Under the pieces are notes generated by a model. It saw only the letters and a program-made list of their open reading frames with translations. It did not search any database and was not told the origin of the DNA. 64,000 nucleotides of DNA, from assembly GCA_019057385.1 (NCBI GenBank), contig JAHQJS010000007.1:416001-480000 (forward strand), written 5' to 3'. Source of the stretch: Candidatus Borrarchaeum weybense (GTDB lineage: Archaea; Asgardarchaeota; Sifarchaeia; Borrarchaeales; Borrarchaeaceae). Below, in pieces: positions 20,622 to 48,218 of this stretch (positions are counted from its first letter, which is position 1; every line of letters begins with the position of its first letter). A program made the translations under genes and the position numbers.

Positions 20622-21293
20622 CTACAAAAAGTCAAATCCAATTGATGAGAGAAATCGCAGGAGAACCTTTTTCACATTTTCACCTGAAAGTTCAGAGATG
20701 GGAAACGTGCCCAAGTAACTTGGACGAGTCCATAATTGCAAACGCTTACGTAATTCATGTGCTGGAATAGCCGTCTGAAGATCTTGTTTATTCGCGCAGA
20801 TAATGTATGGTTTTTTGATTTTTGTTTCGATGATGTCAAGTATTCTTCTTGCTTCTTTTAAGTAATTATCATCTGAAGTTTTACACGAGTCAAGAACTAC
20901 AATGACGCCTCGTGCACCAGCCCACCATATATTCCATAGATTTTGGTATCTTTCTTGTCCACCGAGTTCCCAATGTACAAATTCCAGTTCATGTTCATGT
21001 TTATTTGTTCCTGTTTTTCTTAAAGAAAATTTATAAAACGCCACTCCAGGTGTGGGCTTATACACAGACGCTTCTTTTTTGTGATCTTTATCAACGCTAG
21101 AATTTCTTCCAACAGAGGTGGGATTACGCTTGGATGTCTCATAGCCACCCTCATAAGCCTTTCTTTCACCGTTGAAAATTTCTTCGAGACGGCTGCCTAA
21201 CTCTGATTTACCAGCATTTGCTGGGCCCATTAACAATATTTTAATCACGTCTTCTTTTCCAAGTGGCGGTGAACGTTTATCATTAACTGCCAT
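20622..21293 (-). CDS. Small Ras-superfamily GTPase with atypical G3/G5 and a long G1-G2 insertion
   Basis: G1 GPANAGKS, G2 PTPG, G3 WELGGQ, G4 NKQD, G5 SEL. Confidence 0.85.
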   Translation of the reverse strand: MAVNDKRSPPLGKEDVIKILLMGPANAGKSELGSRLEEIFNGERKAYEGGYETSKRNPTSVGRNSSVDKDHKKEASVYKPTPGVAFYKFSLRKTGTNKHEHELEFVHWELGGQERYQNLWNIWWAGARGVIVVLDSCKTSDDNYLKEARRILDIIETKIKKPYIICANKQDLQTAIPAHELRKRLQLWTRPSYLGTFPISELSGENVKKVLLRFLSSIGFDFL

Positions 21294-21814: not shown

Positions 21815-24800
21815 ATGAGAAAGAATTATATTTTCATCATCGTTCTGATCAGTCTATTAGCATCTAGTATGATTGTTAACGATGCGATGCGTGTTTATGC
21901 TCAGACTGATATTGAGGATTTCGTTGATAACAATTCAAGTGATATAGACACTTCACCAGATATAGGCAATCATTATGATTTTGATAAAGAGAAAGCCAAT
22001 GATTCTGATTTTGATACCTTAAATGAATCCTTAATTGTGACTCCTCCCATAAAAGATTTCGTTGATAACAATTCAAGTGACGTAGATTCTTCTTCGAATT
22101 TAGGGGCGCATTCTAATTTTACAGCCATGCAATATGGTCCAGACTCAATATATGATAACATAACTGAGGTGAATAACGCTGGCATGGTCAATACGACGCT
22201 CATTGATGCAGAATCCTTTGAAGGAGCTTGGCCTCCATCTGATCCATCTGACTGGACTGAAACTGGACGATGGAACAAAGAAAGCGATTTTGTGCCTTCT
22301 GGTGGTGGAACCTATTCAGCGGATATTGAACATTCTGGGGGTTATTATTCAGAGTCAGGAGATTTGATCACCGCTGATTTAGATTGCTCTGATGCGGCAG
22401 CAATATATGTGAGTTTCTATTTTAGAGAAGCCGTTAGCGCGGATACCGAGTTTCAGCTATACTTTTGGAATGGGGCGACGTGGGTTAACATCGAAGATTT
22501 GGGTCAGGGTTATTCGCCAGGTTGGAACCTTTGGGAAATGGAAGTCACCGACAGTCAATATTTCAAGTCAGATTTCAAAATTCGTTGGAGAGCAAATGCG
22601 ATTGAGAGCGGTGAAAACGCGAATGTTGATTTGGTTACCGTAAAAAAGGAAACACCCCTCCCCGATAATTACGCATTAAATTTAGAAGTACAATTTACTG
22701 CAGTTCCCTATTCTCTAGCCAGTGAAACACTCTGTATCTATATGGGTTATAATGGCACTGAAGCTATTAGGGTAGATTATTGGAATGGAACTGGCTGGGA
22801 GAATGTTTTCACGTATTTAAATAACAGTTCTTGGAATAACGCATCAGTCTCAGTAACGAATTCTAATTTTACCATTAGATTTAATGGCACTATAGAATCA
22901 GGTGATACCACGCAGGATTATTATCTGATAGATTGTGTTATTTTGAGACTTGAGGGTGATGGCCATAACGAATTTGTTGTTCAAAATCAAGATTCGGATG
23001 TTGATGGAACTGGGGATGCAGGAGAAATTATTGATTTCTCCAATATGACTGCTTCCGACACTAATATGACCCTTTTGAACGAGACAATTGAAACTGGCGG
23101 CGATCCCAACGAATATTCTATTGATTTGACTGGCGGATATATTAGTTGCGCTACTGCTGATATAGGTGTAGCAGCTGGAACTATTTCATTCTGGATTCAA
23201 TTTGATTCGACAACTTCAGGCAGACCCGTTGGAATGAATGGCAATGAAGAATTAAGACTTAGTAATAGCATTTTATATGCTGATTGGGGAGAAAGCGGAC
23301 CAAGTTTTACTTCTGATACTACCTTTACAATAGGTACATGGTATTTCGTGGCAGTCACATGGGATGAAACAGCAAACGATCTTTTTCTATATGTTGGAAC
23401 AGAAACAACAACACCTTCTTTAGATGCAGGTAGTTCCGCTGCGGGAAGTTGGACAGGAACGACATCAACTATTCCTCAAGCTGCAGTCTATTGGGGAAAT
23501 GGATATGGTTTTTCTGAACCAGTAAATGGGCACATGGATGATATACGTTTTTACGATACAGTAAGAACCTTGAGCGAAATCCGTAGTGATTATAACCAGA
23601 CTCTAACAGGAACTGAAACAGATCTCGTGAATTATTATAAATTAGAGAATGATTATACCGATTCTGCTGCTGGAAATGATGATGGGACTCTTTCTGGCTC
23701 TGGTGCTTTCTCAACCGATGTACCCTCATGGGAGGTTGGTAGTGGTGGTACTAATTTTATTTTAGACCAAGAAGTTCAATGGACTAATATTCCCTCGAAT
23801 TTGCTAAATGAGTATCTATGTATAAAAACGGGAACGTTTTCAGGAACGGAGAAGATATTGGTTGATGCCTGGAATGGAACTGACTGGGAAAACCTCTTTG
23901 ACGATTTGGACGCTAACTGGAATAATGTTTCAATTGCTGATTACCTGACTAGTTCCACTTTTACCATAAGATTTAGGGATGACAACACCACAGAAGATAG
24001 CAGCATTCATGATACATGGGAAATCGATGTTGCACTAATTCACATTTGGAACGAAGACGAGGTTTACAAATTAGACCTAGAGGTTCAATTTGAAGAACCG
24101 CTATTTGCTGATGAATATTTTGAAAAATTATGTATAAAAACAGGAGCATTCTCAGGAATAGAGGATCTTTTAGTTGATGTATGGGATGGTTCACAATGGC
24201 AGGAGGTTCCTGATTTAAATCCATTAAATCCAAATGTTTGGAATAATGCGAGTGTCGCATCATATCTAATAAGCAGTACGGAGAACTTCACAATTCGGTA
24301 TAGGGGAGGTTCTGAGACTTCAGACGATGTACCGGATACATGGCAAATAGATGCTGTTTTACTACATACTTACACTCCATTTGATGATGCGCCCCCAAAC
24401 ATTTCTTGGGGATCAAATCAATTTACAAATGATATAGGAACTCACCAGGTTCATATAGATGTTGACGCAGAAGATATATATTTCGGATCTGGTATTGATA
24501 CGGTTTGGTATCGCATTTGGAACGTTTCATCTGGAATCGAATGGGTTCCTGATCATAATAATGTTTCTTTATCCTTGTCTTCTGGTTATGAGATCGATAT
24601 CAATGTTTCAACTTGGCATCCCTCAACTGAGTACTATGTAGAGGCGTTTGCGACTGACAACTCAGCCCTGAAAAATGAAAATACTACTCAAAATATCACT
24701 GGAGATGAATACAGGTACTTCACGATTGTACACGGCATTGACGTGAGTCAACCAACGGTAACTTACTCGGGGGGTTCAATACAAGAACTAGACATTTCTG

Positions 24801-26410
24801 TTGCAAACGTTAGCTGTAGTTATGCAGCACATGGACCGTTAACTATCAGCAACACCGCACCAGACGTTCATAACTACACAATTTATACTATTGGAGAATT
24901 ATCAACAGGTATTACTGGATTTTTATATCCTTATCAAGAGATGTGGCAAGCTTTCGATGTTGACATCTCTAGTCTGCCTGATGGCGATTATTATGTTCAA
25001 TGCGATTTTGAAGATTCGTGGGGACATACGGGGACAAGCCCCCCTTCCATCAGTTTCACAAAAACAACTGATACCAGCAATGGTGGAGGCAATGGTGGCG
25101 GAGATGGTTCTAGTGATGGAGGTGGTAGCGATGGAACAAGCACGAATACCTTCCTTCTCAATTTCCTGAACAATTTTTACGGCACTAAGCCTGGCCAAAC
25201 AGTAACATTATCAGGAACTATCAGTTCAAATGAAAATGGAAAACTTCTAACGATCACCTTTGAGGGTGAAACGTACACGGCGTATACATTCAATAATGGT
25301 GAATTCGAAGTTACGCTCACGGCACCAAATACCTATGGCAGTTACACTGTTACTGCAAAATTTGCAGGCGATTCAAGCTGGGAAAGTACGAGTACGACTT
25401 GTCAACTCCTTGTTGTAGAAAAAGAAACACAAATGACTATTGATATCGATGGTAACCTAGCTATTGGCGAGCAAATTACGATCCAAACTACCTTGACAAC
25501 AGAAAATGGAGATCTAATGCCTGGTGAGAAGATCACCATCTATATCTATGAGCGAACAAATTCCGTCTCAACTAGTACGCTCTTGACGTCTTCAGGTGTA
25601 AGAGTGTTTTCGGTAGATACACGATATTGGGATTTAATCGCAACATATGAGATTACAACCGATGAGAATGGCAAAGCGACTATTGAGTTGACGATTTCTA
25701 CTGATCAGGATGTACAGATCGTAGCAGAATACGCAGGCAAAATTGAAGGCGAAGGCGGAGAGAACTTAGGTCCATCAATTGTAACATATGTGGAAGGCGA
25801 AACAGGGCCTTTTATTTTAATGTCAAGTGAAATGTTGTATCTTTTCGGAGGAATATTGGCAACAGTCTTAGTGATAGGCTTAATTGTAGTGAAGAAAACG
25901 GATCTCCTTTCAGTTATTATCCAACGGGAGAAAATAGAAGAGACTGTTATACTATCACAAGATCTACTTGATCCAACTCGTTTCGGAATAAAAGCGGTAT
26001 TTATGATTGTGTTTGATCCAGTTATAGGCCCTATGATTAAAGAAAGTCGATTTTTTGATTTTCAAGTTGAGTTTTTCAACGACCTTAAGGATCCTTCAAA
26101 GCTTACACTCTTTTATTCAATGAGTGCAACAAAAGAGCAGTTTAAACTTGAAGAAAAGAATGAACACATTTTTGTAAAATCTGCAACAACATTGATAATC
26201 AATGAAGCAGATATGACAGTTTCTGGCGAAACAGTAGCTCCAAACCTGATCATAGTAATTGCAAAGAAAGGATGTAATGAGAATTTTGTGTGGAAGTTCA
26301 TAAATACAGTCTTGGTAGGATGGTCTGACCATCAGGGATATCTGGTACATCAAATGGATCGTTTGGATTCTGAAAATATGATAGATTTAGGTATCCTCAG
26401 TCTTTTTTAA
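21815..26410 (+). CDS. 1531-aa single-pass surface protein: nested beta-sandwich modules, LamG/ConA-like domain, Ig-like domains, Gly linker, TM, longin/uDENN-like cytoplasmic domain
   Basis: Signal peptide; LamG motifs (TISFWI, WYFVAVTW, GHMDDIRFYD..RTLSEI); TM YLFGGILATVLVIGLIVV; tail with IKAVFMIVFDPVIGP. Confidence 0.8.
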   Translation: MRKNYIFIIVLISLLASSMIVNDAMRVYAQTDIEDFVDNNSSDIDTSPDIGNHYDFDKEKANDSDFDTLNESLIVTPPIKDFVDNNSSDVDSSSNLGAHSNFTAMQYGPDSIYDNITEVNNAGMVNTTLIDAESFEGAWPPSDPSDWTETGRWNKESDFVPSGGGTYSADIEHSGGYYSESGDLITADLDCSDAAAIYVSFYFREAVSADTEFQLYFWNGATWVNIEDLGQGYSPGWNLWEMEVTDSQYFKSDFKIRWRANAIESGENANVDLVTVKKETPLPDNYALNLEVQFTAVPYSLASETLCIYMGYNGTEAIRVDYWNGTGWENVFTYLNNSSWNNASVSVTNSNFTIRFNGTIESGDTTQDYYLIDCVILRLEGDGHNEFVVQNQDSDVDGTGDAGEIIDFSNMTASDTNMTLLNETIETGGDPNEYSIDLTGGYISCATADIGVAAGTISFWIQFDSTTSGRPVGMNGNEELRLSNSILYADWGESGPSFTSDTTFTIGTWYFVAVTWDETANDLFLYVGTETTTPSLDAGSSAAGSWTGTTSTIPQAAVYWGNGYGFSEPVNGHMDDIRFYDTVRTLSEIRSDYNQTLTGTETDLVNYYKLENDYTDSAAGNDDGTLSGSGAFSTDVPSWEVGSGGTNFILDQEVQWTNIPSNLLNEYLCIKTGTFSGTEKILVDAWNGTDWENLFDDLDANWNNVSIADYLTSSTFTIRFRDDNTTEDSSIHDTWEIDVALIHIWNEDEVYKLDLEVQFEEPLFADEYFEKLCIKTGAFSGIEDLLVDVWDGSQWQEVPDLNPLNPNVWNNASVASYLISSTENFTIRYRGGSETSDDVPDTWQIDAVLLHTYTPFDDAPPNISWGSNQFTNDIGTHQVHIDVDAEDIYFGSGIDTVWYRIWNVSSGIEWVPDHNNVSLSLSSGYEIDINVSTWHPSTEYYVEAFATDNSALKNENTTQNITGDEYRYFTIVHGIDVSQPTVTYSGGSIQELDISVANVSCSYAAHGPLTISNTAPDVHNYTIYTIGELSTGITGFLYPYQEMWQAFDVDISSLPDGDYYVQCDFEDSWGHTGTSPPSISFTKTTDTSNGGGNGGGDGSSDGGGSDGTSTNTFLLNFLNNFYGTKPGQTVTLSGTISSNENGKLLTITFEGETYTAYTFNNGEFEVTLTAPNTYGSYTVTAKFAGDSSWESTSTTCQLLVVEKETQMTIDIDGNLAIGEQITIQTTLTTENGDLMPGEKITIYIYERTNSVSTSTLLTSSGVRVFSVDTRYWDLIATYEITTDENGKATIELTISTDQDVQIVAEYAGKIEGEGGENLGPSIVTYVEGETGPFILMSSEMLYLFGGILATVLVIGLIVVKKTDLLSVIIQREKIEETVILSQDLLDPTRFGIKAVFMIVFDPVIGPMIKESRFFDFQVEFFNDLKDPSKLTLFYSMSATKEQFKLEEKNEHIFVKSATTLIINEADMTVSGETVAPNLIIVIAKKGCNENFVWKFINTVLVGWSDHQGYLVHQMDRLDSENMIDLGILSLF

Positions 26411-26542
26411 TTGGAATAAAACGATCTAGCGTGTTTCTGTTTTTTCTGTTTTATCTTTTTTTAAGAAGAAGGGAACAATGGGACAACTGCATTCTCATCA
26501 AATTAAAAAAGGAGTTAGTTGTGTGCTATTTTTCCACTTCAT

Positions 26543-26947
26543 AAGATTACCTCAAGGAGACCCCCCAACGTGTTGGGGAGAGAAATTGAGGTCAGGTATT
26601 TGACCATACAACCCTTTCTGCGGGGACAGGGGTTGGTGTACCCGATCTCGGGTGGTGTTTTAATGACGGGTACTCTCAAGTTCCGTCGCTCCCAACACCA
26701 GGGAGTTGGTTCTCTTCGCCAAGGTTATCAGTCAGTATTATACGGTGATCACTGAGAGTTTCCTCTCTGTTTAAACCACCGTTTACAGAGCAAGGGACTA
26801 GAGAAGCATCCCTTGGTGTGTTCTTTAACTCTCCTGGTAACGTAGATACCGCCATGGTTGTTTCACCACGACCTCTCTTAGGCTAATCAACCAATTGCCC
26901 TTGATCCTCACGGAACAAGCCCCTTAACAAGTTAAGGGGTGATTGAC
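26543..26947 (+). mobile_element. 405-bp non-coding IS200/IS605 miniature (IscB lineage), inserted 3' of TTCAT
   Basis: LE hairpin GACCCCCCAACGTGTTGGGG, nearly identical to the LE of the tnpB element; RE hairpin CCCCTTAACAAGTTAAGGGG ending TTGAC. Excision restores EEGYEVEK*. Confidence 0.85.
26640..26947 (-). ncRNA. Stand-alone IscB-type omega-RNA (HEARO-like)
   Basis: Minus strand reads GTCAATCACCCC...GGGGCTTG...GTTGATTAGCCTAAG...CTACGTT...ACACCAAGGGATGCTTCTCTAGTCCCTTGCTCTG...TTAAACA...AACCTTGGCGAAGAGAAC, matching HEARO landmarks in order. No IscB (PLMP/HNH) ORF follows. The 3' limit is approximate. Confidence 0.8.
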
Positions 26948-27060
26948 AACCTTCTTCTTCCCACTCATGTATCCTATGTTTGAGGCTTTTCACATTTCTA
27001 TAGCCGTATGCTTTTAGAAATAGTGTTGCATGAGCACTCTATGACCACTTCCGGCAATAT

Positions 27061-27180
27061 GTGAGCTACCTCGTGCTAAAGCATCGAGGCTTCCTGCTTC
27101 TACGACAGACTCGATCCCCTTGCGGGTTACAGAGGGGTTATCTCCACAGGCGTAAATCCCCTACGCCCCGTAGGTACTCA
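27061..27180 (-). ncRNA. Stand-alone TnpB-type omega-RNA; predicted guide ATATTGCCGGAAGTGGTCAT
   Basis: GTACCTACGGGGCGTAGGGGATTTACGCCTGTGGAGA...GTCGTAGAAGCAGGAAG followed by the RE hairpin, typical of IS605-type right-end RNAs. TTTATATA box at ~27203-27210 upstream. Confidence 0.7.
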
Positions 27181-27265
27181 TAGGGGATATTACAAAAAAA
27201 ACTATATAAACACCATACAATTCATCATTAGGCCAAAGCATTGGTGCTTTCTTGCTTAATTGTCT
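27061..27265 (-). mobile_element. 205-bp non-coding IS200/IS605 miniature (TnpB lineage), inserted 3' of TTAC
   Basis: RE GAAG-CCTCGATGCTTTAGCACGAGG-TAGCTCAC; degenerate LE (GCAAGAAAG...GATGAATTG). Excision restores EIIT-YC. Confidence 0.8.
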
Positions 27266-27458
27266 GTAATAATTTCAGTATCTTTGTCCTTAGAGTACGA
27301 GTTTTTTTAAAAAAAATATATTTAAAGTAAAAACTTGAGAAAATTGTTTTATAACAAGATTGATCTTCGAATATCGCAGTTATTATCGCGATTTTCTCAG
27401 ATCACTAAAGAATAATTGATCATTGAATTTTTGATTCACGGCTTAAGCGTGAGGTAGT

Positions 27459-30400
27459 TCATTCTTCGAAGCTGTATGTTCTTATTTTTACTACAACGAA
27501 CTCTCCTTTGTCTTTTGAAAAGATGCCGTTGAGATAATTCTTATCAACTAGAATTTGAATTATACTCTCTGCTTCCTCTGCTGAAGTTCCGAATTCTGCA
27601 GCGATATCACTAAACTTAACTCGTTTCTTGTCTTCTTCGCCTATATAATCTAAGATCTGATAATCTAGTTGGTCTTTAATCAAATTGTTTTCATTGAGTT
27701 CTATTTTACAGTTAGGACAACGTTCATTTGCTCGAACGTACCCTAAATAGAGATCTTTATGGCCATACACCTTGCAATAGGGACATCTGATATATTCCTC
27801 ACCAGACTGGATGTCGAGCCCACAAATGACGCATTTCACTCTCTTTTGACCACAATTTGGACACTCGTCAGCTTCTTCGGGAATAACAAAACCGCATTTC
27901 ACACATAATGTTTGTCTCTCATACATTTTCGCCTCAGCTTCTCTTGATCGAAGATATTCAATCGGTAAAATATCTTTATAATCTTTAGCAAGTGTCGAAA
28001 ACACTATTGACGCATCAGCATATTTGCCTGCTTCCATTGACTCATCTGCAGTAAGTAATGAAGTAATTGCAGTTAAATATCTTTCTGCTACGTTTTGTTT
28101 TTCCCTATCTTTTGCCTTTGTGAAAAGCGTAACAGCTTTACGAACATTGTTCAAGGCTTCTTTGAAGTTCTTTTTCATTAACAATTCGACAGCATAATCA
28201 AAATACATTTTACCAGCTGTTTCATATGTTTCGGCAAGTCTATAGGCCCTTTCTGCAAGAACATAAGATTTTAGACGTCGATATTTTTCCCCTAAGTTGA
28301 ACCATAGTTCAATAGCTTTTTCCAAACTTATTTTTTCTTCAACTAGTTTGGCAAGGTCGATATACATAGACTCTGCAACAAGACATGTTTCAGCAGCCTC
28401 TTCTATTTTACCTACTTTAATAAAGTCTCGTACTGCAGTCTCATAATCTCTTCCTTCTCTAGCCCCTACGGCACTCTTGTATCTTCGTCTCTTACGTGAA
28501 TACACAAGAGCTGCTAAGCCAATAACGGCAAGTAATCCACCCATTCCAACCATTATTTCCATATCTGGAAGGGCTGGCTGTATAGTTACCACAAAACTTT
28601 TTGTTGCACTTACATAATCGTTTTTCTCAGCAGTTAGAATGCACAAGTACGTCGCTGTAGCAATGCTACTAGTATCAATATCTGCTGTATAAAGCCCTCC
28701 ACCAAGTTCGTCAAATGTAATCCAGGTTCTATTGCCAATATTCAATACAACATTAGCGCCTTCAACGCCTTTTTCGAATTCATCTGTTACATTCACCGAA
28801 ATCGTCATTATTGTACCCTGTCTGAAAGTATTGCTAGCCAATGAATGTAATAGGTATAAACGGTGTGAAGGAGTCGTATCACCATCACCGCCACCACCGC
28901 TGCTTCCACCGCCATCACTACTTCCACCATCTCCACCGCCACGGTCACCACCACCACCACCGGACTCGGTCACAGTGTAAGTGTAAGCTGAACTGGTATT
29001 ACTATTTCCTGCACTATCGAAAACTTGGAAGAAGTAAACTACAACAGTTCCCGCAGATTGGGCGGGGATCGTTCCGCTATATGAATTACCGTATTGCATA
29101 AGAATTGAGGGCCTTGGTGAGCCGTTTACTGTATAATTTAAGTATACATTTAAGACGGGCGGATCTACGAATGGTAAATCATCAGGGTTAGGTATTGTGA
29201 TAGTAACGTCATCATTATCATCAGGATTCGCAACTGATTGTTGTGGAACAAAAGGATCTGGAAGTTCAGGAGGAATATCATCGACTATCAGAGTATTCCC
29301 GTTTTCAGTTTCTCCCGAAATTTCGAGGTTATCAAAGGCAATTATATCAATGAAATATATCTCTGATGATCTACCTGTAGAATCCCAAGTATTGGTATAG
29401 ATGTCATCTCCAGATGTGGCATCACTGTGCGTCCCGTCATCATATAACCGTATTATAGCAATATCTATTTCATTTGGGAATTGAATATAAGCAGTTACGT
29501 TTTTGACACCTGAAGGAAAGTCTATAACATATGCGGTTATGAGAAACTCTGTGCCTGAAGTACCTGCAGAAGGATTAGTTTGAACATTAGAAACTACAGG
29601 AGGATCATCGTCAATTATAAATGTTGCTACGTTCTCTGTTTCTCCTTGGTTCTCAACATTATCAAAAGCGATGATATCTATATAATATTCTCCCGAAAGT
29701 TGCCCAAATGAGTCCCAGGTACCTCCATAGGTACCATCTCCAGCTATCCCATCATTATGATTCCCATCGTCATAAAGACGCACACTATCTATTGTAGTTT
29801 CATCCGGTAGTTGGATATAAGCAGTTACGTTCTTGATTCCAGAGTCACCATCAAAAACATCAGCAGTAATATTGAAAAGTGTGCCAGATTTTTCTGCAGT
29901 TGGATCAACTAAGGCATTGGAAATAGTTGGTGCTGTATTGTCTATTAAGAAAATATCACCGTTTTCTTCTTCCCATTGGTTATTTGCATTGTCAAAGGCA
30001 ATTATATCAACGAAATATGTTCCTTCAGGTTGTCCAGAGGAGTCCCAATTGTTTCCATAGGTGCCATCTCCGGCGGCTCCATCATTATGGTTTCCATCAT
30101 CGAATAACTGTAAGATAACAATATTAATCTCATTTGGATGTTGAATGTATGCTGTTACGTTCTTGACACCCGAGAGTGTGTCTGTTACAAAAGCAGTTAC
30201 ATTAAAAGTAGTTCCTGAAGTTCCAATATTTGGATTTACCACAACATTGATTGAGGGAATTACTGGAGGTGTATCATCAACAATCAGAGTTTCTGCATTT
30301 TCAATTTCACCTTGATTGTTATCATTATCAGTTGCGACTATATCGATATAATACAATCCTTCTGATTCACCAGCAGAATTCCAGCTGTTTCCGTAGATAT

Positions 30401-33400
30401 CATCTCCTGCCAGTCCATCATTATGATTACCATCATCATATAACTGTAATATTGCAATATTTGTTTCATCTGGCAGCTGAATGTAGGCGAAAACATCTCT
30501 GACACCAGAAACGTCGGTAACAGTGGCAGTTATATTGAAAAGTGTTCCAGATTGTCCTATAGCAGGAATTACTTGTATGTTAGTTACACTTGGAGGATTG
30601 TTTATTATGAAAATATCCCCATCTTCTACTGATCTTTGATTTTCTACATTATCGAAAGCAATTATATCAACGAAATATGTTCCTTCAGGTTGTCCAGAGG
30701 AGTCCCAATTGTTTCCATAGGTGCCATCTCCGGCGGCTCCATCATTATGGTTTCCATCATCAAATAACTGTAAGATAACAATATTAATCTCATTTGGACG
30801 TTGAATATAAGCTGTCACATTTTTTACTCCTGATTGCACATCTGTTACAATTGCAGTTATTACAAAAATAGTTCCAGTTTCTCCCTGTGACGGCGTTACT
30901 TGGATATTTTGCGATAATGCTTCAGGAGGAGTCTTATCGATGCCAAAGAATCTAGCATTTGTTCCTGAAAGCTGAATTTCGTTTCCGAGTGAATCATTTG
31001 CGAAAATTTCTACCCTATAATAATTGACAATTGAACGCCACCCTGAAGTGTCTATATTAAGAGTATAATCAGGACCAAGCAGAGTTTGATTATTATATGC
31101 AGGGACATAAACACTTGAAGAGATATTATAAATTCTAAACCAAACCGTATCAACAACATTCTGCAAATCAGTTGCGTCCACATCAATAACGACCTGATCG
31201 ATCCACCAGGTATCATTGGCAAAATTATTCGTGTCCCAGGTTAAAACAGGTGGCGCATTATCAACTCTAAAGAATCGGGCATCGATCCCTGCTAGTTGCA
31301 TTTCATTACCGGCAGAATCGTTCGCAAAAACTTCTACTCTGTAGTAGGTAGAAGCAGAATTCCACCAAGAGGTGTCTATTGTAGTATTAAAATGAGGACC
31401 TAACAAACTAGCGTTATTGTGGCCTGGAACGTATTCACTAGCAGAGATATTGAAAATTCTATACCAGACTGTGTTCAATTGTAATAAATCGATTGCATCC
31501 ACATCGATAACGACTTCACCATTCCACCAGGTATCATTTGCAAAATTTTCAGTATCCCAATTTAGAGTAGGCAGATCAAGATCAATTCTAAAGAATCGTG
31601 CATCGATTCCGATCAGTTGCGTTTCATAACCTGAGGTATCGTTAGCAAAGACCTCTACTCTGTAATATATATCTGCAGAATGCCAGCTGGAAGTATCGAT
31701 AGTTGTATTGAAATCAGGACTTGAAAGGCTGGCATTATTGTGTCCGGGAACATAGTCACTTGAGGAAACATTATAGATTCGATACCAAACGAATTCGACA
31801 GTTTGTTCCAAATCTACTGCATCTACATCAATGACAACCTGACTATTCTGCCAAGTATCATTAACAAAATTATTGGTGTCCCAATTCAGGGTAGGTGGAT
31901 TTCGATCTATTCCAAAGAACCTAGCTTCCGTTCCAGTTAGTTGTGCTTCATTTCCTATTGTATCATTAGCAAAAACTTCTACTCGATAGTAGATATTTGC
32001 AGAGTGCCACGTAGATGTGTCAAGATTTAGACTATAATCAGGGCCAGTTAATGTTTGATTATTATGTGCGGCAAGATATTCACTCGAAGTGAAATTATAG
32101 ATCCGATACCATACAGAATGAACCGTTTGTTCAGAATCAAATGCGTCTATATCAATAACGACTTGATCGGTCCACCAGGTATCATTGGCAAAGTTACCTA
32201 CATCCCAATCCAATGAGGGCGCCACATTATCAATCCTATAGAACCGAGCATCGTTTCCAAGTAATTGTGCTTCATTACCAGCTGTATCATTTGCAAAAAC
32301 TTCTACTTTATAATAGATGTCAGCAGAATGCCACCCTGAGGTATCGATATCAATAGTGTAATCAGGGCCTGTTAGCGTTTGATTATTGTGATTAGGAACA
32401 TAGTCACTTGAGGACACATTGTAGATTCGATACCATATTGTGTGAATACTAGATTCTGAGTCGAAAGCACCCACGTCGATTGTAACCGGGTCAATCCACC
32501 AGGTATCGTTAGCAAAATTGTTGGTATCCCAATTAAGCGTAGGCGGATCTCGATCGATACCAAAGAACCGTGCATTGATCCCGATCAGTTGTGCTTCATT
32601 TCCTAATGTATCATTGGCGAAGATTTCTACTATGTAATAGATGTCAGCAGAATGCCACCCTGAGGTATCAATAATAGTCGTGTAATCAGGGCCTGTTAGG
32701 GTTTGATTATTGTGATTTGGAACATAGTCACTTGAGGACACATTGTAGATTCGATACCAGACTGTGTCGACTAATTGTAGAGAATCAATGGCAGCTACAT
32801 CGATTGTGACTTGATCTATCCACCAGGAATCATTAGCAAAATTATTGGTATCCCAATTTAATGTAGGAGGTGCATTATCAACCCTAAAGAATCGAGCATC
32901 ATTTCCGATAAGTTGGGCTTCATTACCAGCAGTATCATTAGCAAAGACTTCTACACTATAATAGATGTCAGCAGAACGCCATCCAGAGGTATCGATATCA
33001 ATACTGAAATCAGGACCTGTTAGAGTTTGATTATTGTGATTGGGAACATAGTCACTTGAGGAAACATTGTAGATTCGATACCAAACCGTACTTAATTCTA
33101 ATAAATCAGAGACGTCCACATCGATTGTGACTTGATCGGTCCACCAGGTATCATTAATAAAATTATTCGTGTCCCAAACAAGGCTTGGAGGGTCTTGATC
33201 GATTCTAAAGAAACGTGCAGCAAGCCCTATCAACTGTGCCTCATTGCCTAACGTATCGTTGGCAAAAACTTCAACCCTATAATAGATGTCAGCAGAATGC
33301 CACCCAGACGTATCAATATCAATAGTGAAATCAGGGCCTACTAGGGTTTGATTATTATAGTTAGGAACATAGTCACTTGAGGACACATTATAGATTCGAT

Positions 33401-36400
33401 ACCAGACTGTGTCGACTGATTGTAGAGACTCAATGGCAGCTACATCAATTGTGACTTGATCAATCCACCAGGTATCGTTAACAAAATTATTTGTATCCCA
33501 AACAAGGTTTGGAGGGTCTTGATCGATTCTGAAGAAACGTGCATCTAAGCCGATTAATTGCGCTTCATTACCTAATGTGTCATTTGCAAATATTTCTACT
33601 CTATAATAGATGGCAGCGGAACGCCATCCAGAGGTATCGATATCAATAGTGAAATCAGGGCCTGTTAGGGTTTGATTATTATAGTTAGGAACATAGTCAC
33701 TTGAGGAAACATTATAGATTCGATACCAGACTGTGTCGACTGATTGTAGAGACTCAATGGCAGCTATATCAATTGTGACTTGATCGGTCCACCAGGTATC
33801 ATTAGCAAAGTTGTTGGTATCCCATGTTAATAGAGGTGGAGTATTATCTACCCTAAAGAATCGAGCATCATTTCCGATAAGTTGAACTTCATTACCAGCC
33901 GTATCATTTGCAAAAACTTCAACCCTATAATAGATATCAGCTGAATGCCACCCTGAGGTGTCAATAATGGTTGTGAACTCAGGTCCAGAGAGAGTTTGAT
34001 TATTGTGATTAGGAACATAGTCGCTTGAGGAAACATTGTAGATTCGATACCAGACGGTATGAATAAGATGTTCAGAATCGGTTGCATCTACATCAATGGT
34101 TACTTGATCGATCCACCAGGTATCATTAACAAAATTATTGGTGTCCCAATTCAAAGTAGGTGGATCTCGATCAACTCCAAAGAATCGTGCATCTAATCCA
34201 ACCAATTGTGCTTCATTGCCTAATGTATCGTTGGCAAAAACGTCTACTCTATAATAGATGTCAGCAGAATGCCATCCAGAGATGTCAATGATAGTAGTAT
34301 AGCCAGGGCCTAGCAAAGTCTCGTTATTTTGTCCTAGAACGTACTCACTAGCAGAAACATTATAGATTCTATACCAGACTGTGTCAACTGTGTTTACTAA
34401 ATCAGAAACGTCAACATCGATTGTGACTTGATCGATCCACCAAGTATCATTAACAAAATTATTTGTATCCCAAACAAGGTTTGGAGGCTCATGATCGATC
34501 CTAAAGAAGCGTGCATTAGCATCTGTTAACTGAACTTCATTTCCAGCCGTATCGTTAGCAAAAACTTCAACCCTATAATAGATATCTACGGAATGCCATC
34601 CAGAGATATCAATAACAGTTGTAAACTCAGGGCTCAACAAACTTACATTATTGTGACCCTGAACAAATTGACTTGAAGAAACATTATAGATTCGATACCA
34701 CACTGTACTTAATTGTAGCAAATCAGCTGCATCCACATCTATTACAACTTGGTCGATCCACCATGTATCATTTGCAAAATTGTTAGTGTCCCAGTTTAAT
34801 GTAGGAGGCGTATTATCAACTCTAAAGAATCGAGCGTCTGCGCCTAATAATTGCGCCTCATTGCCTAATGAATCGTTTGCAAAGATTTCTACTATGTAAT
34901 AAATGTCTGCAGAATACCAGCTCGATATATCAACATTCAGAGTGTAATCAGGGCCAGATAGAGTTTGATTATTGTGGCCAGGAACATAGTCACTCGAAGA
35001 GACATTGTAGATTCTATACCAGACTGTGTCGACTAATTGCACAGAATCAATGGCATCCACATCAATAACAACCTGATTTGTCTGCCATGTATCATTTTCA
35101 AAGTTGTTCGTATCCCAACTCAAAATAGGGGGCGAATTATCAACTCTATAGAATCGGGCATCGAATCCGATCAGTTGGGCTTCATTTCCTAATGTATCGT
35201 TGGCAAAAACTTCAACCCTGTAATAGATGTCAGCAGAATGCCACCCTGAAGTATCTATAATTGTCGAATAATCAGGACCTACCAGGGTCTGATTATTATA
35301 CACGGGAATATACTGGCTTGAGGAAACATTGTAGATTCTATACCAAACCTTGTGTACGGTATTTTCTGAGTCAGAGACATCCACATCTATTGTAACCTGG
35401 TCGGTCCACCAGGTATCATTAGCAAAGTTGTTCGTATCCCAATCTAATATAGGTGCCGCATTATCAACTCTAAAGAATCGAGCATCAATTCCAATTAATT
35501 GGGCTTCATTACCAGCGGTATCGTTGGCAAAAACTTCTACTCGGTAATATACATCTGCAGAATGCCAGCCTGATATATCAACATTAAGAGTGAAATCAGG
35601 GCCTATCAAAGTCTGATTATTGTGACCCAACACGTAGTTACTTGAGGATACATTGTAGATTCGATACCAAACTGTATGAACATCATGTTGTGAATCAGAC
35701 GCGTCTATATCGATAGTAACTTGATCGTTCCACCAGGTATCATTAACAAAATTATTGGTGTCCCAATTCAAAGTAGGTGGATCTCGATCAACTCCAAAGA
35801 ATCGTGCATCTAATCCAACCAATTGTGCTTCATTGCCTAATGTATCGTTGGCAAAAACGTCTACTCTATAATAGATGTCAGCAGAATGCCATCCAGAGAT
35901 GTCAATGATAGTAGTATAGCCAGGGCCTAGCAAAGTCTCGTTATTTTGTCCTAGAACGTACTCACTAGCAGAAACATTATAGATTCTATACCAGACTGTG
36001 TCTATTGTTTGTTCCGAATCAAGTGCATCTACATCAATAACGACTTGATCAGTCCACCAGGTATCGTTGACAAAATTGCCTACGTCCCAATTTAATGAGG
36101 GTGCCGCATTATCAACTCTATAGAATCGGGCATCGAATCCGATCAGTTGGGCTTCATTTCCTAATGTATCGTTAGCAAAAACTTCGACCCTGTAATAGAT
36201 ATCTGCAGAATGCCACCCTGACGTATCTATTATCGCGGAATAATCAGGACCCACTAAAGTTTCATTGTTGTATCCTGAAACATACTCACTTGAGGAAACG
36301 TTGTAGATTCTATACCAAACTGTGTCTATTGATTGTTCCGAATCTGATGTGTCAATATCAATTATGACTTGATCGGTCCACCAAGTATCATTGGCGAAAT

Positions 36401-38120
36401 TATTGGTGTCCCAGTTCAAGACTGGTTGTTGATTGTCTACATACACGAAAACACTGGAGGAATTCGAAACAGGGGTTGTGTTTGTATTGTTTGCCCAGAT
36501 TGTGTAGTTATAGCAGTAACCATCTAAAAGCAGTGTTGTATCATCTGGTATGCTTATAGAATCGCTCTGCAAACCTCCAGTGAAATCAGCCTCCGCAATA
36601 ATTGTCCCATTCCTGTAGACGATATAATGATCCAAATCAAAAGGAGTTGTTGATGTAATATCCCAATCAAACGTTTGTATTCCTGAAATCCAACTAAGAT
36701 TTAATGGTGGCGAAATATAGTCAATGTTAACTGGATCAACAATAAAAGAATAATACAGACCAAAATTATCGTTTATTGCATGAGCTCCGAGCGTGGTATT
36801 ATAATAGAAATAATATTCGATAGTAGCTTTAGCTGCTTGCCCTGGAATTGTTCCAGTATAAATGAAATCTTCACAATAACTATTCATAACTATCGAATCG
36901 TTGTGAGTTGTCCAGTCTCCATTAATTGAATAGAAAAGAATAAGCGTATCAATTTCTAGGTCATTAGAAATCGTCGCATTAATTTGGACATCTTCATTTA
37001 GGATTGGTATTTTGGGAATTCTTTGTGTATCAGGATTATGACTAAAACTCGCTTGCAAAATATCTATAGAGAATAAGATGGCTTTTTCATCGTTTAAAGC
37101 ATATGTGATTCCTGAAGTGGTGTTTCCAAATGCCTCAATTCGATATAACGAACCTTCTTTCCAACTGCTTACATTTAGTTCAGTCGCATATGTAGGGCTA
37201 GCAAGAATCGTATTGTCTATTACGATCGATCCTTGTGCCCCTGATGTTTCGTTTATTACGCGATACCAAACCGTATCCATAACAGAATCAGGATCAATGC
37301 ACTCAATATCAACCCATACAGTACTATAATGGAATGAGTTGTTTAACGGCTCTGCCCACTCAAGTTCAATTCCTGTTTCATCATTTTCATCAGCTGGATT
37401 TGTTGTAGAAGATTGCGTATCTTGAGTATCTACTGAACTTTGAGAGATAGAAGATGAAACATCTAGAAGACCAGAATACAGAAGATAAGAATTATCTGAA
37501 TTTTTTATTTTTACATTTACATCGCACAAATCAGAGCGACCGAAAGTGTCTAACGTCTTCACTAGAATTGTTTGCTCACCGTCAGAAAGGCTTTTTGTAT
37601 TCCAGGTGAAAGTATATTTCCCGAAATAGTCGTCACCACCTTCTTGTTCCATCAAACTCCATGAAACGCCTTCGTCAAAACTAACCTTGACGTAGCAAAG
37701 CGGGTGTCTAGATTCTACTTCTGCTTCAATTTCTACGGTTCCAGAGACCGATTGGTTGTTTTGTGGATTGTACACATTTACTTGGGGGGGCATTCCGCTA
37801 ACAACAACAAAAATTGCCATTCCACTTAGAAGCAACACTAATGAAAGAGTTAAAATTCTAAGTTTTGTAAATCTCATTTTTTTCGTTTGTATTAGACGAA
37901 AACGTTGGAATGAATGATTAAATGAATGTAAAAAACCTATGACGACAAAGGGGGCAATAATCCAACAAGCTAATGAGAGAATTGGGAAATAAGTTAACAT
38001 TTTCATTATTGAAGGGCTTAAACTAAATGATGAAGGCAAAAGATAAATTAACAAATACTTTGTTAACCAATATGATCCCTTCTCTAAATGTGAGGGATCC
38101 ATCTGTAAAAGAGTTATCAA
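27459..38120 (-). CDS. 3553-aa giant surface protein: Ig-like domains, 17 tandem repeats, 5 choice-of-anchor-X-like domains, Gly linker, TM; cytoplasmic solenoid + Zn ribbon + RING-like + PCI/winged helix
   Basis: Repeats are visible directly. TM MVGMGGLLAVIGLAALVY is followed by RKRRR. Tail has CVKC..CPNC, CVIC..CPYC..H..CPNC and VKFSDIAAEF..VDKNYLNGIF. Alternative start ATG at 37877 (MRFTKLRILTLSLVLLLSG, signal-peptide-like). Confidence 0.85.
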   Translation of the reverse strand: MITLLQMDPSHLEKGSYWLTKYLLIYLLPSSFSLSPSIMKMLTYFPILSLACWIIAPFVVIGFLHSFNHSFQRFRLIQTKKMRFTKLRILTLSLVLLLSGMAIFVVVSGMPPQVNVYNPQNNQSVSGTVEIEAEVESRHPLCYVKVSFDEGVSWSLMEQEGGDDYFGKYTFTWNTKSLSDGEQTILVKTLDTFGRSDLCDVNVKIKNSDNSYLLYSGLLDVSSSISQSSVDTQDTQSSTTNPADENDETGIELEWAEPLNNSFHYSTVWVDIECIDPDSVMDTVWYRVINETSGAQGSIVIDNTILASPTYATELNVSSWKEGSLYRIEAFGNTTSGITYALNDEKAILFSIDILQASFSHNPDTQRIPKIPILNEDVQINATISNDLEIDTLILFYSINGDWTTHNDSIVMNSYCEDFIYTGTIPGQAAKATIEYYFYYNTTLGAHAINDNFGLYYSFIVDPVNIDYISPPLNLSWISGIQTFDWDITSTTPFDLDHYIVYRNGTIIAEADFTGGLQSDSISIPDDTTLLLDGYCYNYTIWANNTNTTPVSNSSSVFVYVDNQQPVLNWDTNNFANDTWWTDQVIIDIDTSDSEQSIDTVWYRIYNVSSSEYVSGYNNETLVGPDYSAIIDTSGWHSADIYYRVEVFANDTLGNEAQLIGFDARFYRVDNAAPSLNWDVGNFVNDTWWTDQVVIDVDALDSEQTIDTVWYRIYNVSASEYVLGQNNETLLGPGYTTIIDISGWHSADIYYRVDVFANDTLGNEAQLVGLDARFFGVDRDPPTLNWDTNNFVNDTWWNDQVTIDIDASDSQHDVHTVWYRIYNVSSSNYVLGHNNQTLIGPDFTLNVDISGWHSADVYYRVEVFANDTAGNEAQLIGIDARFFRVDNAAPILDWDTNNFANDTWWTDQVTIDVDVSDSENTVHKVWYRIYNVSSSQYIPVYNNQTLVGPDYSTIIDTSGWHSADIYYRVEVFANDTLGNEAQLIGFDARFYRVDNSPPILSWDTNNFENDTWQTNQVVIDVDAIDSVQLVDTVWYRIYNVSSSDYVPGHNNQTLSGPDYTLNVDISSWYSADIYYIVEIFANDSLGNEAQLLGADARFFRVDNTPPTLNWDTNNFANDTWWIDQVVIDVDAADLLQLSTVWYRIYNVSSSQFVQGHNNVSLLSPEFTTVIDISGWHSVDIYYRVEVFANDTAGNEVQLTDANARFFRIDHEPPNLVWDTNNFVNDTWWIDQVTIDVDVSDLVNTVDTVWYRIYNVSASEYVLGQNNETLLGPGYTTIIDISGWHSADIYYRVDVFANDTLGNEAQLVGLDARFFGVDRDPPTLNWDTNNFVNDTWWIDQVTIDVDATDSEHLIHTVWYRIYNVSSSDYVPNHNNQTLSGPEFTTIIDTSGWHSADIYYRVEVFANDTAGNEVQLIGNDARFFRVDNTPPLLTWDTNNFANDTWWTDQVTIDIAAIESLQSVDTVWYRIYNVSSSDYVPNYNNQTLTGPDFTIDIDTSGWRSAAIYYRVEIFANDTLGNEAQLIGLDARFFRIDQDPPNLVWDTNNFVNDTWWIDQVTIDVAAIESLQSVDTVWYRIYNVSSSDYVPNYNNQTLVGPDFTIDIDTSGWHSADIYYRVEVFANDTLGNEAQLIGLAARFFRIDQDPPSLVWDTNNFINDTWWTDQVTIDVDVSDLLELSTVWYRIYNVSSSDYVPNHNNQTLTGPDFSIDIDTSGWRSADIYYSVEVFANDTAGNEAQLIGNDARFFRVDNAPPTLNWDTNNFANDSWWIDQVTIDVAAIDSLQLVDTVWYRIYNVSSSDYVPNHNNQTLTGPDYTTIIDTSGWHSADIYYIVEIFANDTLGNEAQLIGINARFFGIDRDPPTLNWDTNNFANDTWWIDPVTIDVGAFDSESSIHTIWYRIYNVSSSDYVPNHNNQTLTGPDYTIDIDTSGWHSADIYYKVEVFANDTAGNEAQLLGNDARFYRIDNVAPSLDWDVGNFANDTWWTDQVVIDIDAFDSEQTVHSVWYRIYNFTSSEYLAAHNNQTLTGPDYSLNLDTSTWHSANIYYRVEVFANDTIGNEAQLTGTEARFFGIDRNPPTLNWDTNNFVNDTWQNSQVVIDVDAVDLEQTVEFVWYRIYNVSSSDYVPGHNNASLSSPDFNTTIDTSSWHSADIYYRVEVFANDTSGYETQLIGIDARFFRIDLDLPTLNWDTENFANDTWWNGEVVIDVDAIDLLQLNTVWYRIFNISASEYVPGHNNASLLGPHFNTTIDTSWWNSASTYYRVEVFANDSAGNEMQLAGIDARFFRVDNAPPVLTWDTNNFANDTWWIDQVVIDVDATDLQNVVDTVWFRIYNISSSVYVPAYNNQTLLGPDYTLNIDTSGWRSIVNYYRVEIFANDSLGNEIQLSGTNARFFGIDKTPPEALSQNIQVTPSQGETGTIFVITAIVTDVQSGVKNVTAYIQRPNEINIVILQLFDDGNHNDGAAGDGTYGNNWDSSGQPEGTYFVDIIAFDNVENQRSVEDGDIFIINNPPSVTNIQVIPAIGQSGTLFNITATVTDVSGVRDVFAYIQLPDETNIAILQLYDDGNHNDGLAGDDIYGNSWNSAGESEGLYYIDIVATDNDNNQGEIENAETLIVDDTPPVIPSINVVVNPNIGTSGTTFNVTAFVTDTLSGVKNVTAYIQHPNEINIVILQLFDDGNHNDGAAGDGTYGNNWDSSGQPEGTYFVDIIAFDNANNQWEEENGDIFLIDNTAPTISNALVDPTAEKSGTLFNITADVFDGDSGIKNVTAYIQLPDETTIDSVRLYDDGNHNDGIAGDGTYGGTWDSFGQLSGEYYIDIIAFDNVENQGETENVATFIIDDDPPVVSNVQTNPSAGTSGTEFLITAYVIDFPSGVKNVTAYIQFPNEIDIAIIRLYDDGTHSDATSGDDIYTNTWDSTGRSSEIYFIDIIAFDNLEISGETENGNTLIVDDIPPELPDPFVPQQSVANPDDNDDVTITIPNPDDLPFVDPPVLNVYLNYTVNGSPRPSILMQYGNSYSGTIPAQSAGTVVVYFFQVFDSAGNSNTSSAYTYTVTESGGGGGDRGGGDGGSSDGGGSSGGGGDGDTTPSHRLYLLHSLASNTFRQGTIMTISVNVTDEFEKGVEGANVVLNIGNRTWITFDELGGGLYTADIDTSSIATATYLCILTAEKNDYVSATKSFVVTIQPALPDMEIMVGMGGLLAVIGLAALVYSRKRRRYKSAVGAREGRDYETAVRDFIKVGKIEEAAETCLVAESMYIDLAKLVEEKISLEKAIELWFNLGEKYRRLKSYVLAERAYRLAETYETAGKMYFDYAVELLMKKNFKEALNNVRKAVTLFTKAKDREKQNVAERYLTAITSLLTADESMEAGKYADASIVFSTLAKDYKDILPIEYLRSREAEAKMYERQTLCVKCGFVIPEEADECPNCGQKRVKCVICGLDIQSGEEYIRCPYCKVYGHKDLYLGYVRANERCPNCKIELNENNLIKDQLDYQILDYIGEEDKKRVKFSDIAAEFGTSAEEAESIIQILVDKNYLNGIFSKDKGEFVVVKIRTYSFEE
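29280..30935 (-). repeat. Five ~110-aa choice-of-anchor-X-like repeats
   Basis: L(Y/F)DDG.H.D..(A/S)GD..Y...W.S occurs five times; units 1 and 3 share an identical DNA patch 660 bp apart. Confidence 0.8.
30940..36440 (-). repeat. 17 tandem ~324-bp (~108 aa) Ig-like coding repeats
   Basis: Unit D..PP.L.WDTNNF.NDTWW.DQV.ID....VWYRIYNVSSS.YV...NN.TL.GP......WHSADIYYRVEVFANDT.GNEAQL.G..ARFF, counted 17 times. Confidence 0.92.
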
Positions 38121-47636: not shown

Positions 47637-48218
47637 TTATCTATCAATCATCAGCGAGTCTCTCACTTTACTTTCCCTAATTTTAGCTTTATTCTTTTGT
47701 GCTTGTTCTACTAGCATATTATTTAGTGTTCTAAAAATAAATTCTACATTTTCCCCTGTTTTTGCTGATGCTTCGAAAAATGGACAGTCTATTTCCTTTG
47801 CTATCTTTTCTCCTTCTTTCGAAGAAATTATCCTTGCTTCCTCTAAATCCGATTTATTTCCAACCAGTATGATAGGTATCCCTGCGCTGTGCTTTTTCAC
47901 TTCTTGATACCATTTTTTGACATTCTTGAATGATCCCTCATTTGTAATATCATAGACTATTAACGCACCTCGAGCTCCTTGAAAATAATGAGAACGTATA
48001 TTTGTAAAACGTTCTTGTCCCCCAGTATCCCAAATAAATAACCTCGTCTGGATATCTTCAATAGTGTACCTCTTGATCCTAAAATCAACTCCGATTGTAA
48101 CTTTATAATTTTCAACAAAGACTTTTGTAGTACATCTTAAACTAAGTGCAGTTTTTCCAACGCTTCCATCGCCTACAATGATTACTTTGAAAATATAGCT
48201 CATCGGATACTTTTCCAC
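47637..48218 (-). CDS. Rab-like small GTPase
   Basis: GDGSVGKT, TIGVDF, IWDTGGQERF, YFQGA, IVYDIT, NKSD, SAK; no C-terminal Cys. Confidence 0.92.
   Translation of the reverse strand: MEKYPMSYIFKVIIVGDGSVGKTALSLRCTTKVFVENYKVTIGVDFRIKRYTIEDIQTRLFIWDTGGQERFTNIRSHYFQGARGALIVYDITNEGSFKNVKKWYQEVKKHSAGIPIILVGNKSDLEEARIISSKEGEKIAKEIDCPFFEASAKTGENVEFIFRTLNNMLVEQAQKNKAKIRESKVRDSLMIDR

Follow-up and report, generated by a model that had tools for sequence, protein, structure and literature searches.

A RING finger with a lost zinc ligand in the predicted cytoplasmic tail of a giant surface protein of the Asgard archaeon Candidatus Borrarchaeum weybense

The longest open reading frame (ORF) in a 64-kb stretch of the Candidatus Borrarchaeum weybense genome (contig JAHQJS010000007.1, positions 416,001 to 480,000; hereafter the window) lies at 27459..38120 on the reverse strand and encodes a giant surface protein. 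Its last 368 codons and the stop codon (27459..28565) encode a tail in which a transmembrane helix is followed by tetratricopeptide repeat (TPR)-like helices, a zinc ribbon, a RING-type finger and a terminal PCI-type winged helix. A preliminary description of the same DNA had proposed this architecture, and all five parts were right. The ribbon and the RING belong to a large family, in which they mostly form the cytoplasmic C-terminus of membrane proteins, and the RING of the giant protein lacks one of the zinc ligands. We suggest that the tail may be a membrane-anchored RING docking platform, whose role would be that of a non-canonical or non-catalytic partner (a scaffold or a pseudo-ubiquitin ligase, pseudo-E3) and not that of a stand-alone ligase, and we give this interpretation an even chance. 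The genome has a size of 4.18 Mb in 8 contigs, the G+C content in the window is 31-43%, and close homologues of the window proteins carry the labels Promethearchaeota, Lokiarchaeia, Freyarchaeota or Heimdallarchaeota.

A ribbon and RING module behind a transmembrane helix

The stretch that covers the ribbon and the RING matched 399 proteins at E<=1e-3 (HMMER, 1.84 billion representatives), and nearly all of these matches were confined to tail residues 215-298, where tail residue 1 is residue 3185 of the protein. The consensus of the family reads C..CG(x9)CP.CG(x5)C.VC...I..G.....CP.C....H..HLLEW.K.KG.CP.C, and the members that could be named by cluster look-ups are all Asgard. Among 120 relatives with the full pattern, a transmembrane segment stood ahead of the module in 80 and after it in none, and the number of residues after the module had a median of 12 and exceeded 30 in only seven. 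In Pfam the family was matched by DZR together with zf-RING_2 or Prok-RING_1, and zf-RING_2 (PF13639) matched 118 of 130 relatives at E<=0.01, with a best value of 4.2e-9.

The module profile matched the tail of the giant protein at 6.8e-26. The tail shows the pattern of the family, namely a ribbon of the form C-x2-C-x(9-11)-C-P-x-C, a 6-residue spacer and a RING ending in C-P-x-C, all behind a transmembrane helix, and it departs from the family norm in the 82 residues that follow the module. The tail is a member of a large and so far unnamed membrane ribbon and RING family, to which its lineage has added about 180 amino acids (aa) of TPR-like helices before the module and the PCI-type winged helix after it. 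The module is carried by 143 of the 201 sampled genomes of the phylum (E<=1e-5) and gives as many as 27 matches in one genome; its distribution is patchy. It was present in all genomes of many families (41 of 41 and 21 of 21, for example) and was not found in any of the 43 genomes of one family or the five of another; many of the module-less genomes are more than 95% complete. Several relatives, alongside which P0005, P0006, P0007, P0075 and P0146 are named, hold two to four ribbon and RING modules in tandem.

The tail was modelled with AlphaFold2 as a whole, with a 130-row alignment, and again for tail residues 215-369; both models are metal-free. The mean predicted local distance difference test (pLDDT) value of the whole-tail model was 76.7, with 82-98 across tail residues 110-300, and the second model reached 86-97 in the zinc part and 75-86 in the helices of the last domain. 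The transmembrane helix, a hydrophobic segment of residues 3189-3207 (28500..28556; this and all following parts of the tail lie on the reverse strand), is directly followed by the positive-inside stretch SRKRRRYK. Moreover, 96 N-x-S/T sequons lie in the ectodomain and none in the tail. Because of the positive-inside rule and this distribution of sequons, the last 346 residues should be cytoplasmic, and the giant protein would be a type-I single-pass surface protein that is N-glycosylated on the outside. The TPR-like helical repeats (tail 41-218; 27915..28448) were modelled as stacked helices of about 180 aa in total, in agreement with the earlier account of the region, and both helical motifs quoted there were found in the sequence. 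The first ribbon Cys lies 198 residues from the transmembrane helix. The ribbon itself (tail 219-243; 27840..27914) carries Cys 222, 225, 236 and 239 in the pattern C-x2-C-x10-C-x2-C, and the RING-H2-type finger (tail 244-292; 27693..27839) shows the pattern C-x2-C-x12-C-x2-C-x4-H-x2-L-x10-C-x2-C over tail residues 246-287, with a short helix at 271-281. Next comes a linking stretch (tail 293-312; 27633..27692), helical over 293-309 and of low confidence in the short model, and then the winged helix (tail 313-369; 27462..27632), which was modelled with moderate confidence and is followed by the stop codon (27459..27461).

A profile of the RING alone matched RNF24, RNF126 and EL5 at about 3e-9 and next Arkadia/RNF165, RNF38, AMFR, Hrd1 and ZNRF3, in a range down to 2e-4, and these alignments took in the central helix, the Trp and the final CP-x-C. 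The model of the finger was superposed on the Prp19 U-box (Z 7.1-8.0, 1.9 A over 56 residues), on the Slx1 RING (Z 8.1), on RNF165 (1.5 A over 48 residues) and on TRAF6 (1.5 A over 58 residues). A cross-brace RING/U-box fold is well supported for the finger by these models. The RING-like finger of the preliminary description is thereby borne out, and the possibility that it is not a cross-brace RING falls because of the RING-H2 profile matches and the RING/U-box superposition.

The lost ligand and the question of ligase activity

Seven of the eight Cys/His ligands of a RING-H2 are present in the finger, and the sixth is Leu273 (residue 3457; codon 27750..27752, reverse strand), a position that is Leu in both orthologues too. 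Predicted zinc site I consists of C246, C249 and H270, with Leu273 replacing the His, and predicted zinc site II of C262, C265, C284 and C287. In addition, Tyr277 replaces the family Trp at the position of contact with the ubiquitin-conjugating enzyme (E2). Ligand 6 of a cross-brace is part of site I and lies on the RING face that, with the central helix, is used for E2 binding. A comparison of HKDLYLGY in the giant protein with HEDHYIQW in a 489-aa protein of the same window had been the ground for describing a lost ligand and a lost Trp, and both losses are exactly as described. Across 130 aligned relatives, the sixth ligand position is occupied by His in 116 and by Glu in nine, and Leu occurs only in the giant protein and its orthologue P0003; the Trp is kept in 114 of the 130. 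All other paralogues in the genome retain both His and Trp.

The HKDLYLGY motif is identical in the giant protein and two orthologues. Orthologue L019 is a 1,907-aa protein on a contig of an estuary-sediment metagenome, and orthologue L020 is a fragment in a genome of the same genus. The ratio of nonsynonymous to synonymous substitution rates (dN/dS) against L019 was 0.042 in the RING, 0.059 in the ribbon and 0.039 in the winged helix, compared with 0.146 in the helices, with dS near saturation. Given that the orthologues keep HKDLYLGY and that purifying selection on the finger is strong, the finger is not decaying. The loss of the site-I ligand and of the Trp on the E2 face is lineage-specific and selectively maintained.

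In the docking-platform interpretation, the tail under the membrane would tie the extracellular rod to the ubiquitin machinery, and the TPR part and the winged helix may recruit further proteins or oligomerise partners. A scaffold role would be analogous to that of the degenerate RINGs holding IFT-A, GATOR2 and HOPS together. We infer zinc occupancy, protein partners and a lack of catalytic activity.

The genome holds four E2 (UQ_con) genes, at G000:C4:215552, C4:598243, C4:696353 and C4:126893, and also ubiquitin genes, and a RING gene stands beside them in two places. One ubiquitin cluster (G000:C4:124396-127150) comprises genes for a soluble 128-aa RING protein and ubiquitin and an E2-like gene; another (G000:C4:694469-700268) comprises a 377-aa RING protein with five transmembrane segments, an E2 and two ubiquitin-like matches. 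The 128-aa operon RING is of the subtype C-x2-C ... C-P-x-C-x4-H-x2-H-L-x-E-W ... C-P-x-C, which is that of the module family, and it was matched by the module profile at 3.8e-17. The RING of the giant protein is paralogous to the ubiquitin-operon RING. Full ribbon and RING modules occur three times in the genome, in the giant protein, in the 489-aa protein and in a 391-aa protein with two transmembrane segments on contig 5 (C5:230238), and the module profile matched two RING-only proteins besides.

The 489-aa single-pass protein (42656..44125, forward strand) bears an intact ribbon and RING tail and is a candidate partner of the giant protein. Among genomes of the same genus, the tail of the giant protein was found in G041 (69% complete) and the orthologue of the 489-aa protein in G020 (77% complete), and neither was found in G050 (100% complete). 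Obligate pairing of the two proteins has no support from this co-occurrence within the genus.

A fully active membrane-anchored RING-H2 ligase, like RNF24, gp78/AMFR, Hrd1 or ZNRF3, is the main alternative, which we consider less likely than the docking platform. In this case, the ectodomain would sense contact, the TPR part and the winged helix would pick substrates, and either Asp272 would complete site I or the site would be dispensable, as it is in U-boxes. The best matches of the RING-only profile are indeed catalytic RING-H2 E3s, some of them membrane-bound in eukaryotes, zinc-free U-boxes are among the top structural matches, and purifying selection on the finger is strong. The genome's four E2 genes, its ubiquitin genes and the operon RING with the family subtype point in the same direction, as does the fact that Asgard E1/E2/RING cascades (E1, ubiquitin-activating enzyme) have been reconstituted in vitro (10.1101/2023.07.25.550441); another archaeal cascade of this kind also works in vitro, according to Hennell James 2017 as referenced by that paper.

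Several observations weigh against a purely non-catalytic docking platform. Of the E2-contact features, Ile248 at C1+2 (CVIC) and Pro285 after C7 (CPNC) are left, the Lys at the linchpin position, directly after C8, is kept, and Tyr277 is still aromatic at the Trp position. Asp272 adjoins the lost ligand and, with Glu at ligand 6 in about nine of the 130 relatives, a carboxylate may complete the site. Furthermore, for the RING taken by itself, catalytic RING-H2 ligases are a better match than the RINGs of coat proteins (WDR24 at only 7.7e-4), and the Pfam matches of the tail are all under the curated cut-offs, zf-RING_2 reaching 22.8 bits (E 1.1e-4) against a cut-off of 27.3 bits. Since Ile248, Pro285 and the Lys are retained and Asp272 lies beside the lost ligand, the finger may have some residual E3 activity. 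Nevertheless, the joint loss of ligand 6 and the Trp is unique to the orthologue group of the giant protein among the 130 relatives, and both changes fall on the site I/central-helix face used for E2 binding, which argues against an active ligase.

Likeness to coat-type proteins and the terminal winged helix

The best matches of the tail-alignment profile among solved structures were WDR19/IFT144 (1.8e-11), MIOS (9e-10), IFT122 (3.3e-8) and WDR24 (4.2e-8), and they ranked above or level with ordinary RING E3s. These matches extend over both the ribbon and the RING, and the 6-residue spacer from the last ribbon Cys to the first RING Cys is common to the family consensus, WDR19 and MIOS. A Foldseek comparison of the C-terminal tail, as proposed in the preliminary description, ranked chains of these complexes first: with the whole tail, IFT-A chains were on top (2.4e-5 to 2e-4), followed by GATOR2 and SEAC; with the ribbon, RING and winged helix, WDR19 was on top (5.4e-5, about 100 columns, 4.0 A, 21-26% identity), followed by MIOS, WDR59, WDR24 and SEAC and then by ordinary RINGs. 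The shape search of the ESM Atlas placed IFT-A and MIOS clusters uppermost. The TM-scores (template modelling scores) of the IFT-A and GATOR2 matches in Foldseek and the ESM Atlas were all below 0.5. Pfam models of coat-protein domains were found among the family members as well, Zf_IFT144_1st in 10, zinc_ribbon_16 in 30 and zf-RING_16 in 32.

The model of the helical part matched the TPRs of P58IPK (Z 10.9, 2.8 A over 98 residues), the IFT-A TPRs (Z about 10), Sec17 (Z 8.8) and CHIP (Z 8.5), where helical Z values under about 13 count as weak, and TPR_2 (PF07719) recognised one repeat at 22.2 bits, under its cut-off of 27. In these models the helices look like a generic TPR/SNAP-like fold without a specific coat signal. 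When the helices alone were searched with phmmer against 150 relatives, no matches were found beyond the orthologues and one Heimdall protein (34 bits). The latter, P0045 (417 aa, Heimdallarchaeota), shares the helical region and the module and has two internal helical repeats. The winged helix alone, in the same search, found orthologues only. Because these helices-only and winged-helix-only searches gave nothing but the orthologues and P0045, the long alignments to P0011, P0040 and P0053 are carried by the zinc module. A beta-propeller was not found in the giant protein, whose tail is preceded by the transmembrane helix and an extracellular Ig-like (immunoglobulin-like) rod and contains none in its model.

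The RINGs of IFT-A make protein-protein contacts, TPR-zinc finger-RING ends are used between subunits, and the propeller-solenoid-RING layout is common to COPI, HOPS/CORVET and GATOR2/SEA (10.1101/2022.08.09.503213; PMC4678705). A 2026 preprint describes solenoid clusters common to Asgard archaea and eukaryotes, with RING E3s, ciliary TPR proteins and also a HOPS/CORVET-like cluster among them, and cautions about the convergence of repeat architectures (10.64898/2026.10.28.762692). In the literature, no paper was found that links Asgard RING modules with IFT-A or GATOR2.

It is improbable, in our estimate, that the TPR-like helices, ribbon and RING of the tail are a true precursor-type relative of the protocoatomer C-termini (IFT-A, GATOR2/SEA, HOPS/CORVET and alpha-COP), that is, a coat-like assembly element beneath the membrane. 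The profile matches across ribbon and RING with their equal spacer, the same chains at the top of Foldseek with or without the helices, the agreeing Atlas ranking, the coat-domain models in some family members and the small GTPase genes next door all favour such kinship. However, the tail profile score is approximately what a RING match and a generic ribbon match (about 23 bits, the level reached by L40e or rubrerythrin) give together, and Cys-rich profiles inflate scores. Moreover, the RING alone prefers catalytic E3s, the helices are generic and unconserved beyond the orthologues and one Heimdall protein, the beta-propeller is absent, the TM-scores are low, and repeat architectures converge easily (10.64898/2026.10.28.762692). 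Of the coat-like layout of a solenoid followed by zinc finger and RING that had been suggested earlier, the ribbon and RING part stands, by the profile, Foldseek and Atlas ranks, and the solenoid part is doubtful, as the helices look like generic TPR and a beta-propeller is lacking. The likeness thus consists of the domain order and the ribbon-RING pair, and therefore homology to coat proteins is possible only and is unproven.

The terminal winged helix (residues 95-155 of the short model) was compared with 48,161 chains in a search independent of Foldseek, and nearly all matches listed were PCI-type winged helices. They included subunits of the COP9 signalosome (CSN) and the proteasome lid, PCID2, eIF3 subunits, the PCI domains 1ufm and 1wi9, and DDRGK1/UFL1 (24-25% identity), with middling Z values of 5.4-7.1 over 48-60 residues and root-mean-square deviations mostly of 2.1-4.1 A (6.5 A for eIF3c). 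The Pfam PCI model (PF01399) reached 18.5-20.6 bits, under its cut-off of 22, and fires in four of 14 control genomes too; DDRGK (PF09756) reached 21.7-24 bits, under its cut-off of 27.8, and also fires in control genomes. The C-terminus had been called PCI-like, and this holds for the winged-helix fold subtype, as seen in the structure matches, but not at the level of the Pfam family: the models make "PCI-type winged helix" a fair name of a fold subtype, and the family label "PCI domain" is unjustified. A match to a whole PCI domain (CSN and lid chains, tail 115-358) was rejected at root-mean-square deviations of 11-14 A. UFMylation, as suggested by the DDRGK match, was dropped, since Ufm1 was not found in the genome, which is scored 100% complete, and the DDRGK model stayed under its cut-off and fired in controls. 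In the ESM Atlas feature search, the last 76 aa came near generic bacterial winged helix-turn-helix clusters (DUF2582, IclR and DsrD; 0.90-0.91, few shared features), a result that speaks neither for nor against the PCI type.

Although this language-model result and weak Pfam matches to MarR_2, FeoC and YjcQ could suit a membrane-tethered regulator that is released by cleavage and binds DNA through its winged helix, and although the DZR model spans the ribbon and the first half of the finger as if the "RING" were two sequential zinc ribbons without RING function, both versions are very improbable, the former because nearly all the winged-helix matches listed were PCI-type and not of DNA-binding families, and the latter in view of the RING/U-box superposition at 1.5-1.9 A and a RING-H2 alignment in which the helix, the Trp and CP-x-C are included.

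Asgard archaea were already known to have RING E3s and ubiquitin operons. What is new here is a five-part tail (transmembrane helix, TPR-like helices, ribbon, RING and PCI-type winged helix) on a surface rod of 3.5 kaa, a RING that is strongly conserved despite a lost zinc ligand, and the fact that every search with the whole tail or with the ribbon and RING points to the IFT-A/GATOR2 C-termini as the nearest analogues. We regard it as unlikely, but worth stating, that the Asgard ribbon and RING module was the prokaryotic source of the TPR-zinc finger-RING C-termini of IFT-A, GATOR2/SEA, HOPS/CORVET and COPI, the module being seen here already behind TPR-like helices and degenerate at one zinc site. 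If this were true, the assembly end of the protocoatomer would have begun as a ubiquitin-linked cytoplasmic tail of archaeal surface receptors, and it would become possible to test how the assembly end of coat-like complexes arose. If there was no such descent, the protein nevertheless offers a clear example, in a prokaryote, of a receptor-like protein connected to a ubiquitin-type module, and with the 489-aa protein it forms a natural pair of degenerate and intact RINGs for biochemistry.

The locus and comparison with known systems

The giant gene as listed (27459..38120, reverse strand) has 3,553 codons from a TTG. Translation probably starts from an ATG at residue 82 (codon 37875..37877), where Met82 begins a signal-peptide-like segment of signal or anchor type, MRFTKLRILTLSLVLLLSG, and the 81 codons ahead of it in the listed ORF (37878..38120, reverse strand) are then probably untranslated. 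The ectodomain (28557..37877, reverse strand) is made up of Ig-like repeats, other beta-sandwich domains and a Gly-rich linker, bears the sequons, and is matched by Pfam Big_3_3 and Big_7. It contains 17 tandem Ig-like repeats of 108 aa and one earlier copy, five repeats that are each about 110 aa long, and several single beta-sandwich domains; by this count of repeats and domains, the previous estimate of roughly 30 beta-sandwich domains was about right.

A neighbouring gene (21815..26410, forward strand) encodes a 1,531-aa protein with one copy of the Ig-like repeat type of the giant protein (TVWYRIWNVSSG), a LamG domain and a transmembrane segment. Its cytoplasmic tail of about 150 aa is different from that of the giant protein, and the giant surface proteins of the locus therefore bear differing eukaryote-like cytoplasmic tails. 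Arf- and Ras-like small GTPase genes lie near the giant gene. An Arf/Roc-like GTPase gene (20622..21293, reverse strand) adjoins that of the 1,531-aa neighbour, and the region following the 489-aa RING gene holds genes for a 1,032-aa protein with weak N-terminal NACHT/AAA_16 P-loop matches (44145..47243, reverse strand) and a clear Ras/Rab-like GTPase (47637..48218, reverse strand; E 1e-56). Just downstream of the giant gene, in a gap (26411..27458) without an ORF of 80 aa or more, lies a full-length Rfam match to the HEARO RNA, the IscB-associated omega RNA (26705..26947, reverse strand; 129.6 bits, E 1.5e-26). It looks like an orphan guide-RNA element because no IscB-sized ORF stands beside it, and it was not found in the orthologous contig of L019.

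Compared with known systems, the tail shares the order of TPR-like helices, ribbon and RING, the last often degenerate, with the C-termini of IFT-A (IFT144/WDR19, IFT122 and IFT121) and GATOR2/SEA (MIOS, WDR24 and WDR59), where these domains serve as assembly contacts and not as ligases (10.1101/2022.08.09.503213). However, the IFT-A and GATOR2 proteins are soluble and have N-terminal beta-propellers and long solenoids, whereas the giant protein has a transmembrane helix and an extracellular rod instead and an additional PCI-type winged helix. PCI proteins of the lid, CSN and eIF3 likewise have helical repeats upstream of their winged helix, but in the giant protein the ribbon and the RING separate the repeats from the winged helix.

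The eukaryotic RING-H2 E3s RNF24, EL5/ATL, gp78/AMFR, Hrd1 and ZNRF3, several of which are known as membrane-anchored ligases, are what the RING half matches best in sequence (3e-9 to 2e-4). Like the giant protein, such ligases carry a cytoplasmic RING-H2 behind a membrane anchor. Unlike in the eukaryotic RING-H2, where ligands 3 and 4 are arranged as C-x-H, these ligands form a C-P-x-C knuckle in the finger of the giant protein, which also differs in the zinc ribbon just ahead of the RING and in the missing ligand 6. The small ubiquitin-operon RINGs of Asgard and other archaea (zf-RING_2 or Prok-RING_1 type) have the RING subtype in common with the module family. The 128-aa operon RING is soluble, without ribbon, TPR or winged helix, and has all eight ligands and the Trp, whereas the finger of the giant protein is membrane-anchored, far from any ubiquitin operon and without ligand 6 and the Trp. 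The modules of the 489-aa protein and the giant protein, both behind a transmembrane helix, are 36% identical over 81 aa; in the 489-aa protein, however, only 6 residues follow the RING, TPR and winged helix are missing, and the His and the Trp are retained.

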